Source of the DNA: an uncultured Bifidobacteriaceae bacterium
Lineage (GTDB): Bacteria > Acidobacteriota > Vicinamibacteria > Vicinamibacterales > JAENWD01
Reading direction: 5' to 3'
Assembly (NCBI GenBank): GCA_964446605.1
Contig: CAYUPN010000013.1
Coordinates: 16 to 64,015, forward strand
Length of the DNA stretch: 64,000 nt
Shown here: positions 4,555 through 38,122 of the stretch, in pieces
Position numbering within the stretch: position 1 is the first letter of the stretch
Layout: the number at the start of each line of letters is the position of its first letter
The notes under the pieces: model-generated
The model's database searches: none
The model's input: only the letters and a program-made list of their open reading frames with translations
What the model was told of the DNA's origin: nothing
Translations under genes and position numbers: made by a program

Positions 4555-4628
4555 TGGAGCGGGCTACGGGAATCGAACCCGTCTGGCTGGCTTGGGAAGC
4601 CAGGGCATTACCACTATGCTAAGCCCGC
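4555..4628 (-). tRNA. tRNA-Gly (anticodon CCC) with encoded CCA
   Basis: Reverse complement reads GCGGGCT-TA-GCAT-AGTGGTA-ATGC-C-CTGGC-TTCCCAA-GCCAG-CCAG-ACGGG-TTCGATT-CCCGT-AGCCCGC-T-CCA. Confidence 0.92.
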
Positions 4629-35280: not shown

Positions 35281-36327
35281 ATGGTGGTGGTCATGCAGGA
35301 GCGGGCCAGCGAGGAGCAGATCGAGAAGGTCGTCGCGCACCTCGTCGCGCTCAAGATGGACGTGCATCGGTCGACGGGCGTGTCCCGGACCGTGCTGGGC
35401 GCGGTGGGGGACGACCGGCACATCGATCCGCGGCTGATCGAGATGCTCGACGGCGTCAGCGAGGTGCTGCGGGTCTCCGAGCCGTACAAGCTCGCGAGCC
35501 GCGCCTTCAAGCCGGATGGCACCGTGGTGCAGGTCGGGGACGTGCGCATCGGCGGCGACGAGGTGATCGTCATGGCCGGTCCGTGCTCCGCCGAATCGGA
35601 GGCACAGGTGCAGGCCGCGGCGGCCGCCGTCAAGCGCGCCGGCGCGAAGATCCTGCGCGGGGGCGCGTTCAAGCCGCGCAGCTCACCCTACAGTTTCCAG
35701 GGACTGGGCGAAGAGGGGCTCCGCCTGCTGCGCGACGCCGCCGACGCGCACGATCTGAAGCTGGTCAGCGAAGTGATGGACGTCAGCCAGATCGAGCTCG
35801 TCGACCGCTACAGTGACATCTTCCAGGTGGGCGCGCGCAACATGCAGAACTTCACGCTGCTGCGGGAGCTCGGCCGCGCGCGCAAGCCGGTGCTCCTCAA
35901 GCGCGGGATCGCCGCGACGATCGAGGAGTGGCTGCTCTCGGCGGAGTACGTGCTCGCCGGCGGCAACAGCGGTGTGATCCTCTGCGAGCGCGGCATCCGC
36001 ACCTTCGAGAGCTACACGCGCAACACGCTCGACATCTCCGCCGTCCCGGTGGTGAAGAAGCTGAGCCATCTGCCGATCATCGCGGACCCGAGCCACGGAA
36101 CGGGACGGCGCGACAAGGTGGCGCCGATGGCGCGCGCGGCCGTCGCCGCCGGCGCCGACGGCCTGATCATCGAGGTGCACTGCGATCCGGATCACGCGCT
36201 CAGCGACGGCGCGCAGTCGCTCTTCCCCGCGCAGTTCGACCGGCTGATGGCGGAGCTGCGCATCATCGCCCCGGCGATCGGCCGGACCATCTGTCTCGAG
36301 CCGGTCGCCAGACGCGGATGGCGGTGA
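35281..36327 (+). CDS. 3-deoxy-7-phosphoheptulonate (DAHP) synthase, type I-beta with N-terminal ferredoxin-like regulatory domain
   Basis: 348 aa. SD GGAGG lies 7 nt upstream. The N-terminal 70 aa (QIEKVVAHLVALKMDVHRSTG...) resemble the FL/ACT-like domain of Thermotoga-type enzymes. The core has MAGPCSAES, GGAFKPRSSPYSFQG and DPSH. Confidence 0.9.
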   Translation: MVVVMQERASEEQIEKVVAHLVALKMDVHRSTGVSRTVLGAVGDDRHIDPRLIEMLDGVSEVLRVSEPYKLASRAFKPDGTVVQVGDVRIGGDEVIVMAGPCSAESEAQVQAAAAAVKRAGAKILRGGAFKPRSSPYSFQGLGEEGLRLLRDAADAHDLKLVSEVMDVSQIELVDRYSDIFQVGARNMQNFTLLRELGRARKPVLLKRGIAATIEEWLLSAEYVLAGGNSGVILCERGIRTFESYTRNTLDISAVPVVKKLSHLPIIADPSHGTGRRDKVAPMARAAVAAGADGLIIEVHCDPDHALSDGAQSLFPAQFDRLMAELRIIAPAIGRTICLEPVARRGWR

Positions 36328-37178
36328 GCGACAGCGCCGAGGGCGGGTTTCGCCGCATCGGCATCGTCGGCGTCGGGCTGATCGGCGGATCGATCGCCTT
36401 CGCGACGCGGCGGACCTTCCCCGGCGTGACCGTCGTCGGCGTCGACCGCGAAGACGTCGTCGACGCGGCGCGCCAGCTCGGCGCGCTCCAGGCCGGCGCG
36501 ACGGACCTGCGCATCCTGGAGGGATGCGATCTGGTGGTGCTGGCCGCGCCGGTCCGGCAGAACGTCGAGGTGCTGGCGCACCTGCCGGATGCCATCCGGA
36601 GCGCCGCCATCGTCACGGACGCCGGCAGCACGAAGCGCGTGGTCGTCACGGCGGCGCGGGCCCTGCCGCCGCACCTCACCTTCATCGGCGGCCACCCGCT
36701 GGCGGGGTCCGCAAAGGGCGGCCTCGAAGCCTCACGCGCGGATCTGTTCGAGCGGCGTCCCTGGCTGCTCACGCCGACGGCCGACGTGCCGCCCGAGGCG
36801 GTGCAGCGGCTCTCGGCCTTCCTGACCTCGCTCGGTGCGACGCCGCTCGAGTTCGATCCCGATCGGCACGATCGGGTGCTCGCCTTCACCAGCCACCTGC
36901 CGCAGCTGGCCGCCTCCGCACTGATGCACGTCGTCGGCGAGGCGGTGGGAGAGGCCGGGCTCAGGCTCGCCGGGGGCGGGCTGGCGGACACGACGCGCGT
37001 GGCTGCGAGTCCGGCGGCCATCTGGACCGACATCTGCGCCACGAACGCCGACGAGATCCTGCCGGCGCTCGACACCCTCATCACGACGCTCCAGCGTCTC
37101 CGCGCCGACCTCGACGCCGGCGCCCCGATCGATCCCCTCTTCACCTCAGCGCAGCGCTGGCGCCGGCAGATCAAGTAA
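36318..37178 (+). CDS. tyrA: prephenate (or arogenate) dehydrogenase
   Basis: 286 aa. Rossmann IGIVGVGLIGGS, and GGHPLAGS with the catalytic His. It overlaps the DAHP synthase stop by 10 nt. Confidence 0.85.
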   Translation: MAVSDSAEGGFRRIGIVGVGLIGGSIAFATRRTFPGVTVVGVDREDVVDAARQLGALQAGATDLRILEGCDLVVLAAPVRQNVEVLAHLPDAIRSAAIVTDAGSTKRVVVTAARALPPHLTFIGGHPLAGSAKGGLEASRADLFERRPWLLTPTADVPPEAVQRLSAFLTSLGATPLEFDPDRHDRVLAFTSHLPQLAASALMHVVGEAVGEAGLRLAGGGLADTTRVAASPAAIWTDICATNADEILPALDTLITTLQRLRADLDAGAPIDPLFTSAQRWRRQIK

Positions 37179-37286
37179 CAGGTCTCCGATCAGGTCGGAT
37201 CGGGTCGGATCAGGTCGGATCAGGTCGGATCAGGTCGGATCGGGTCGGATCAGGTCGGATCGGGTCGGATCAGGTCGGATCAGGTC
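37179..37286. repeat. 10-bp tandem repeat C(A/G)GGTCGGAT, 9 full units plus degenerate flanking units
   Basis: Units start exactly at 37191, 37201 ... 37271. Position 2 is A,G,A,A,A,G,A,G,A across the nine units. The flanks are a 12-nt degenerate copy at 37179-37190 and a partial CAGGTC at 37281-37286. Isolated degenerate copies lie at 37324-37333 and 37363-37372. Confidence 0.97.
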
Positions 37287-37407
37287 CCGCCTTCGTCCGC
37301 CTGCGATTGGTTGCGGGCTCGGCGGATCAGGTCCGCGCGCGCTCGAGGGTGGCGGCGCGCGCGATCGGGTCCGGCGCGTCGCCAATCTCATCTGTTGTTA
37401 TGGAATG

Positions 37408-37414
37408 ATAAATT
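37408..37414 (+). promoter_or_regulatory. candidate -10 element (ATAAAT/TAAATT) for the CoA-transferase operon, leaderless geometry
   Basis: Located in the AT-rich patch tctgttgttatggaatgataaattagcggc. TAAATT (37409-37414) is followed by 6 nt and then ATG 37421. Confidence 0.4.
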
Positions 37415-37420
37415 AGCGGC

Positions 37421-38122
37421 ATGAACAAGGTCCTGCAGTCGGCTGACGAAGCTGTCGCGATGATCCCCGACGGGGCGACGCTGATGGTTGGCGGGTTCGG
37501 CGTGTGCGGGAATCCGGAGAACCTCCTGGACGCGCTGGAACGCCGGGGCACGCGCGGGCTGACGGTCATCAGCAACAACGCCGGGATCGACGGGTTCGGG
37601 CTGGGGCGGCTCCTGGCCGGCCGTCAGATCAGGAAGATGATCGCGACCTACGTCGGCGAGAACCGCGAGTTCGAACGGCAGTTCCTCGCCGGGGAGCTCG
37701 AAGTCGAGCTGGTGCCGCAGGGCACGTTCGCCGAGCGCATCCGTGCGGGGGGCGCGGGCATCGGCGGGTTTTACACACCGACCGGGGCCGGGACGATCGT
37801 CGCGGAAGGGAAGGAGACGCGCGTCATCGACGGGAAGCCGTATGTCTTCGAGCTGCCGCTCAAGGCCGACTTCGCGCTCGTGCGCGCGTGGAAGGGGGAC
37901 ACGCGCGGGAACCTCGTCTTCCGGAAGACGGCGCGCAACTTCCACCCGATGATGGCGACCGCCGCGCGCGTGACGCTCGCCGAGGTGGAGCACCTCGTCG
38001 AGGCAGGGGAGATCGAGCCCGATGCGGTGCACACGCCCGGCATCTTCGTGTCGCACATCCTGCAGGGGGCGCGCTATTCGCGCCTCGTCGAGCGGCGTAC
38101 GGTGAGGAGCAGCCATGGATAA
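37421..38122 (+). CDS. 3-oxoacid CoA-transferase subunit A (ScoA/AtoD family)
   Basis: 233 aa. [14 protein letters not shown] and SENG-less A-subunit pattern, with ...[18 protein letters not shown]. Confidence 0.9.

Follow-up and report, generated by a model that had tools for sequence, protein, structure and literature searches.

Within a 64-kb stretch of DNA (hereafter the window) the 194-nt spacer at 37179-37372, between tyrA and a gene encoding CoA-transferase subunit A, is a single composite element, comprising a tandem array of 10-nt units, a hairpin module (A), a unit, a second hairpin module (B) and a further unit. We consider it likely that this spacer is a member of a family of modular repeats which is dispersed through intergenic regions of the Vicinamibacterales and carries an expandable 10-nt array. 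This genome-wide reading replaces the local one of the preliminary description, in which a phased operator or methylation array might serve one operon. The features of the region are listed in Table 1.

Table 1. Features of the tyrA/CoA-transferase region, in window coordinates
Feature	Position	Strand	Basis or remark
tyrA (prephenate/arogenate dehydrogenase)	36318-37178	+	Pfam PDH_N, PDH_C; stop codon TAA at 37176-37178
Degenerate first unit CAGGTCTCCGAT	37179-37190	+	caggtcgc at the matching junction of the relative with 92% tyrA identity
GATCRGGTCG tandem array, nine exact units plus partial unit, 10 GATC	37188-37286	+	TRF, register, A/G pattern
Hairpin module A, CCGCC-TTC-GTCCGCC ... GCGGGC-TC-GGCGG	37287-37325		blastn similarity to eight SMAG_U2030 loci extends here
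Unit copy GATCAGGTC closing module A	37325-37333	+	
Hairpin module B, perfect 9-bp inverted repeat CGCGCGCGC / GCGCGCGCG, 12-nt loop	37334-37363		Repeat search
Terminal unit copy GATCGGGTC, end of the element	37363-37371	+	
-10-like hexamer ATAAAT, 7 nt before the CoA-transferase A ATG	37408-37423	+	Conserved in relatives; outside the element
CoA-transferase subunit A, first gene of the CoA-transferase A/B - thiolase cluster	37421-38122	+	Pfam CoA_trans

Re-checking of the coordinates reproduced exactly those originally given for the tyrA stop codon, the units, the partial copy and the GATC sites. Nine exact 10-nt units of the form C(A/G)GGTCGGAT occupy 37191-37280, the sole variable position reading A,G,A,A,A,G,A,G,A in order, and the partial copy at 37281-37286 lies directly 3' of them. 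The ten GATC sites fall at 37188, 37198 and so on to 37278 in 10-bp steps, and GATCRGGTC recurs downstream of the array at 37325 and 37363. Such an array is far outside chance expectation: its TRF score is 177 (9.9 copies, 93% matches) against 86 for the runner-up in the window, and nine of the ten occurrences of the exact 9-mer GGTCGGATC in the 64 kb are located inside it. The G+C content of the window is 71.8% and its 64 kb hold a single copy of the element. As DNA the array itself has no significant structure when compared with shuffled sequences; RNA of the same sequence can form GAUC/GGUC helices.

The array is not an assembly artefact, an explanation that the preliminary description had named. 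An exact-protein look-up identified Logan short-read contigs from eight SRR118438xx read sets that carry identical flanking tyrA or CoA-transferase genes (the same 286-aa TyrA protein is found in NCBI and Logan contigs), and these contigs enter the array from both sides and all stop inside it. The left break, at 37217, coincides with the first branch predicted in a k=31 de Bruijn graph of the A/G pattern in the window. The longest exact repeat internal to the array is 39 nt, so that any assembler using k of at least 41 resolves it, while arrays of this kind break short-k assemblies. The right break, at 37266, is not predicted from the window sequence alone. It marks the position at which 31-mer sharing ends between the junction typical of the family, CCGCCTTCGC, and that of the window, CCGCCTTCGT. 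Since the break fits a family-consensus junction, it implies that the source samples hold further copies of the element in which the array meets module A at that consensus junction.

The element starts 1 nt past the tyrA stop codon and has the order ten units, H38, unit, H29, unit. Its module A is a diverged copy of the commonest module of the family, with a folding z-score of -2.3 as RNA and about 0 as DNA, and module B has DNA z-scores of -1.9 and -2.8 on its two strands. What had been described as two isolated degenerate copies of the unit downstream of the array are the units that close these two palindromic modules, and are part of the grammar of the element.

Evidence for a dispersed family comes from a scan of one genome per species with a query of 2.4 repeat units, which returned at least 61 loci. 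At least 24 array loci, on at least 21 contigs, belong to the Vicinamibacterales MAG SMAG_U2030, at least six to the Vicinamibacteria MAG MFD00392 and at least one to MFD04850; the remaining listed matches are scattered over many high-GC phyla. In blastn comparisons the similarity between the window and SMAG_U2030 passes the array and continues to about 37345. The elements share a common grammar, in which units repeated head-to-tail precede GC-rich palindromic modules, with a further unit closing every module, and the array lies 5' of the hairpin-unit modules in 21 composite elements and in the reverse arrangement in one. Arrays of the MFD MAGs consist of units only, without hairpins. As judged with a crude GC3-based gene caller, the elements are all intergenic and lie in either orientation relative to genes. 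They are 29-494 nt in length, sit at gene ends and contain from 2 to about 13.6 units per locus. The largest (L039, 3694-4187; 494 nt) is made up of a tail-to-tail pair of composite elements, one side of which holds 13 units, and is a potential long cruciform.

Among 119 units from SMAG_U2030, GATC is 89-97% conserved and GGTC 90-98%, position 5 is divided about equally between A and G, and position 10 is most often G, followed by T and then A. The commonest variants interconvert GATC and GGTC (A to G at position 2, G to A at position 7), and the unit is a hybrid of the degenerate palindrome GAYC-N-GRTC. Module A has the family form CCGCC-TTC-GCCCGCG-loop-CGCGGGC-TTC-GGCGG and module B the form CGCGCGGCCGC-loop-GCGGCCGCGCG; shorter A-like variants and a 46-nt module C also recur. 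Each of the 45 unit-bracketed modules (22-57 nt) is more stably folded than its dinucleotide-preserving shuffles (mean z = -2.9, with z below -2 in 35; p about 1e-20), and the complementarity of their arms is 8.2 of 12 positions compared with 4.4 in shuffles. Hairpin stability is equal on both strands and shows no relation to the direction of flanking transcription (strand-asymmetry test null). The register of the hairpins is fixed: a hairpin always replaces unit position 10, and nearly all modules are preceded by ...GATCRGGTC and followed by (G)ATCRGGTC. Blocks of hairpin plus unit appear to have been duplicated in tandem at some loci, for example L041, which has six modules, and L060, with a repeated block of ~150 nt.

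Alignment of 24 A-type modules with MAFFT followed by RNAalifold, the alignment not being a structural one, gave no consensus structure and hence showed no covariation, because the inner stems differ in both sequence and length. The internal-loop triplets of module A are identical between the arms, not complementary, in 11 of 17 copies (TCC/TCC, TC/TC, TTC/TTC and TGC/TGC, in L027, L039, L041, L046, L060 and L105), a count that includes many near-duplicate tandem copies of doubtful independence.

We also considered whether the 10-mer is a universal element. This was rejected, as the hits in Streptomyces, Kitasatospora, Planctomycetota, Sphaerotilus, Halovivax and others are short and without hairpin modules. 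Perfect period-10 arrays have a background of ~5 per Mb in the high-GC DNA collected for this analysis, and we estimate, by extrapolation without a control scan, that a 596-Gb collection would yield such scattered hits for any GC-rich 10-mer. Short arrays at five loci (L016, L020, L028, L040 and L073, from Streptomyces, Kitasatospora, Planctomycetaceae and Sphaerotilus hosts) are often located immediately upstream of a ribosome-binding site and ATG on the opposite strand. This recurrent placement is probably a property of background simple sequence.

The arrangement of tyrA followed by the CoA-transferase gene is conserved among relatives, which enabled comparison of orthologous spacers. Where tyrA identity is 67-70% (L076-L081, L099 and L102) the spacer is 40-55 nt long and lacks the element, and at 73-75% (L107-L111) it holds a different inverted-repeat insert. 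At 85% identity the Vicinamibacterales loci L075, L104 and L112 possess two units around one module. The closest sampled relative (L105, 92% identity), in which a single contig spans the spacer, has the architecture of the window with three degenerate units, matching it at the stop-codon junction, module A, unit, module B, unit and the promoter-proximal sequence. Nucleotide identity between this locus and the window is 91.5% and 95% in the coding flanks and 80%, with indels, in the non-array part of the spacer. The array is 108 nt long in the window and 38 nt in the relative, a difference of exactly seven units (70 nt). The preliminary description had suggested comparing copy number across strains, and the ten units found here against three in the relative bear out the variability that it anticipated. 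Its view of the array as intergenic and non-coding holds as well. The difference of 70 nt is not a multiple of three, so that no ORF crossing the array is conserved.

A second orthologous pair (L052 and L070), from two other species, both Vicinamibacteria, with flanks ~85% identical, has eight and about six units respectively. At these loci (L052 1606-1685, L070 6855-6911) an ArgZ-like ORF located upstream extends into the array and terminates at a TGA that is made by a GGTC-T-GATC variant of the unit, so that unit changes could alter the C-terminus of the ArgZ-like protein. Other lineages carry unrelated palindromic or tandem inserts in the tyrA/CoA-transferase spacer (L107-L111 at ~2350-2560, L098 at ~460-700, L095 and L100), such as ccacggaggacacagaggacac...gtgtctctgtggttgg and agtgctaagtgccaagtg...cacttggcacttagcact. 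It seems that lineage-specific repeats land in this spacer recurrently.

In the window a chorismate mutase - DAHP synthase - tyrA cluster ends with tyrA. The 5' end of tyrA, from its ATG, shares 10 nt with the end of the DAHP synthase ORF (36318-36327), which suggests translational coupling within the aromatic amino-acid cluster. Downstream of the element are genes encoding CoA-transferase A/B, thiolase and an ECF-type sigma factor. The counterpart of the ATAAAT hexamer in relatives is CATAAT or TATAAT, followed by 7 nt and then the ATG (L076-L081, L087, L098, L099 and L111), which suggests a conserved leaderless CoA-transferase A transcript initiated from this predicted promoter. A scan with the sigma-70 consensus identified no full promoter in the spacer, and a terminator consensus scan of the same sequence gave no match. 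The element disrupts neither tyrA nor the downstream promoter region.

In the repeat-family reading, the element is polar, with the pattern >>>>>>[H]>[H]>, in which a unit array is followed by palindromic modules inserted in one unit register. Whole units may be gained or lost by slipped-strand mispairing or unequal exchange between units, which would account for ten near-perfect units in the window and three degenerate ones in the closest sampled relative; the near-perfect array would then represent a recent expansion. Blocks of hairpin plus unit would likewise duplicate in tandem. At this locus the element presumably landed between the tyrA stop codon and the downstream -35 region. Since neither gene is disrupted, any local effect is expected to be generic, as a structured 3' end or spacer, rather than specific to the operon. 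The likeliest such effect would be to give the tyrA transcript a structured spacer or insulator at its 3' end, and the element may possibly also serve as a site for a putative global DNA-binding protein, both suggestions being drawn from the sequence.

The main live alternative, although we regard it as unlikely, is that the family has been domesticated for a structural or protein-binding role, either as phased sites for a global protein (nucleoid-associated or GATC/GGTC-recognising) or as hairpins that terminate or insulate strand-symmetrically between neighbouring transcription units. It is kept alive by the polarity of the elements, by the conservation of the unit core (89-98% across the 119 units) and by the array retained at the orthologous L052/L070 site, the flanks of which are ~85% identical. 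The hybrid-palindrome character of the unit also speaks for it, as do the location of the elements at gene ends and the equal folding of the hairpins on both strands, the last being as expected of a bidirectional terminator. In contrast, T-tract terminators are absent, loci differ freely in copy number, module content and length (29-494 nt), and the same spacer lacks the element in most relatives. Retention of the array in two species, the strict polarity and the fixed register could nevertheless reflect function or a dedicated mechanism rather than neutral slippage.

One form that such a mechanism might take, to which we likewise assign a low probability, is that a dedicated enzyme, such as a class 3 HUH-Y1 nuclease or another ssDNA transposase, recognises or cleaves GATCRGGTC, or that a global DNA-binding protein of the Vicinamibacteria binds there. 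Hairpins would then be inserted site-specifically at unit position 10, and the polar unit arrays would be the product of that activity or its landing pad. The class 3 HUH-Y1 (TnpA_Y1) proteins, termed “REPtron-like”, occur in Acidobacteria and Planctomycetes and are flanked by high-copy atypical hairpins with the 5' foot CnGA, of which Solibacter usitatus has about 600 (PMC6006769). The minus strand of our unit, GACC(C/T)GATC, places C(C/T)GA 1 nt from the foot of the hairpin. This is a weak 4-nt match, made by published description alone, in a host of the same phylum, and the window and collected loci (~0.9 Mb) encode no such gene: a regular-expression search for the HUH-Y1 signature gave no hits in this sequence. 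All-against-all comparison of ORFs near the elements identified no transposase, only sigma-54 activator paralogues at no consistent position, and a scan of viral contigs for the array gave no hits. If the enzyme reading were true, the family would constitute a previously undescribed REPtron-like system with a microsatellite target, and its arrays may be conserved chromosome-structuring sites.

The preliminary description also raised the idea of a slippage-prone contingency locus; in the form considered here, unit number would alter expression of tyrA or the CoA-transferase operon, for example through spacing or upstream promoter geometry. Variable copy number, the part of this idea that stands, is seen in the seven-unit difference from the closest relative; the near-perfect array suggests recent expansion, and the last unit of the element ends ~12 nt upstream of the presumed -35. 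A classical switch is very unlikely, however, as the array begins past the TAA and is neither between the -35 and -10 nor inside a reading frame. It stops about 120 nt short of the -10-like box, with ~85 nt of hairpin modules intervening before the promoter, and arrays of the same kind are found at many unrelated loci in both orientations.

Slightly less probable again is a Dam-type GATC methylation cluster, read by a SeqA-like or otherwise methylation-sensitive protein, or an intrinsically curved element. The ten GATC sites at 10-bp spacing would suit such a cluster, and GATC is enriched in hairpin apices (17 of 46 modules, compared with ~14% expected). A role centred on GATC finds no support in the sequence, however, because GGTC is conserved as well as GATC and the unit variants interconvert them, and the observed/expected ratio of GATC is 0.94 in the window outside the element. 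The 64-kb window contains no credible DPPY methyltransferase ORF, and the array is without the A-tracts that would favour curvature. The original proposal placed all ten GATC sites on one helical face. Their 10-bp spacing is exact, but B-DNA has 10.5 bp per turn, and a period of 10.0 bp therefore drifts by ~17 degrees per unit, or ~150 degrees over nine intervals, so that the sites share one face only approximately and leave it over 100 bp.

That a dedicated regulator of the downstream CoA-transferase/thiolase operon binds the array, another early suggestion, is extremely improbable in spite of the position of the array upstream of the operon start and the ECF-type sigma factor gene downstream, as array and modules adjoin unrelated genes at no fewer than 24 intergenic loci in SMAG_U2030, in both orientations, and the operon and its -10 box are conserved in relatives without the element.

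The family preferred here resembles the REP/BIME, BOX and NIME class of mosaic intergenic repeats (PMC2817692, PMC3116915, PMC3733652, PMC3049150). REP/BIME elements are short GC-rich palindromes of about 20-45 nt, present extragenically in many copies, in mosaic arrays with conserved linkers, often past stop codons (PMC2817692, PMC3116915). Like those of Enterobacteria and Pseudomonas, including REPINs, our elements are extragenic, short, imperfect palindromes that are tandemly amplified and clustered with conserved linkers. Membership of the REP family nevertheless fails on the tag and on alternating orientation: there is no GTAG or CGTC tag at the feet of the modules and, unlike REPIN doublets, modules and units are co-oriented (21:1), only L039 being tail-to-tail. 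As linker our family has the 10-nt unit, which can itself be arrayed in up to ~13 copies, and no RAYT was found in the window and collected loci (~0.9 Mb).

The BOX element of Streptococcus pneumoniae, boxA-(boxB)n-boxC, is dispersed, intergenic and modular, and the copy number of one of its modules differs among loci and strains (PMC3049150). Our family is similarly a dispersed composite with one variable module, the orthologous tyrA spacer holding 10, 3 or 2 units, but the variable module is a terminal 10-nt unit rather than a central 45-nt box and the host is a high-GC member of the Acidobacteriota; the two are set apart by description. In the NIME of Neisseria, RS modules are flanked by dRS3, a 20-nt CGTC-tagged inverted repeat (PMC3733652). 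Both systems have variable modules bracketed by one short conserved repeat, which probably mediates module shuffling or duplication, although in our case the bracket is a direct unit of 9-10 nt that also forms long tandem arrays.

Mycobacterial MIRU VNTRs are likewise intergenic tandem repeats between co-directional genes at many loci, with copy number varying among relatives. MIRU units are 40-100 bp, operon-oriented and often contain small ORFs, whereas the unit described here measures 10 nt, can lie in either orientation and comes together with hairpin modules. A CRISPR array was considered and rejected: CRISPR arrays have repeats of 23-47 nt and unique spacers of similar length, whereas here the unit is 10 nt and head-to-tail and the “spacers” are recurrent palindromic modules. 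Searches of the literature on repeats in Vicinamibacter, Vicinamibacteria and Acidobacteria (REP, REPIN, tandem repeat, GATC) found no description of the family, and none of the REP, BOX and NIME descriptions consulted includes a 10-nt unit that flanks each hairpin and is also repeated in a polar array.

The Vicinamibacterales, an abundant uncultured soil lineage, would thus carry their own REP/BIME-like mosaic family with a microsatellite-like module. The arrays could be used as VNTR-type strain markers in soil metagenomes and should be masked in the prediction of regulatory sites. The family also offers a tractable case in which to study the origin and spread of REP-like elements outside the Proteobacteria.

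Comparison with Rfam of the spacer region and the whole window identified no family matching the element, the only candidate being a sub-threshold match to ncS16 (25 bits, against a gathering score of 48). Two tRNAs were found in the window, both on the minus strand, at 1-69 (cut by the window edge) and 4558-4628. The tetranucleotide CTAG is strongly under-represented in the window, with 7 occurrences observed compared with ~32 expected (ratio 0.22).
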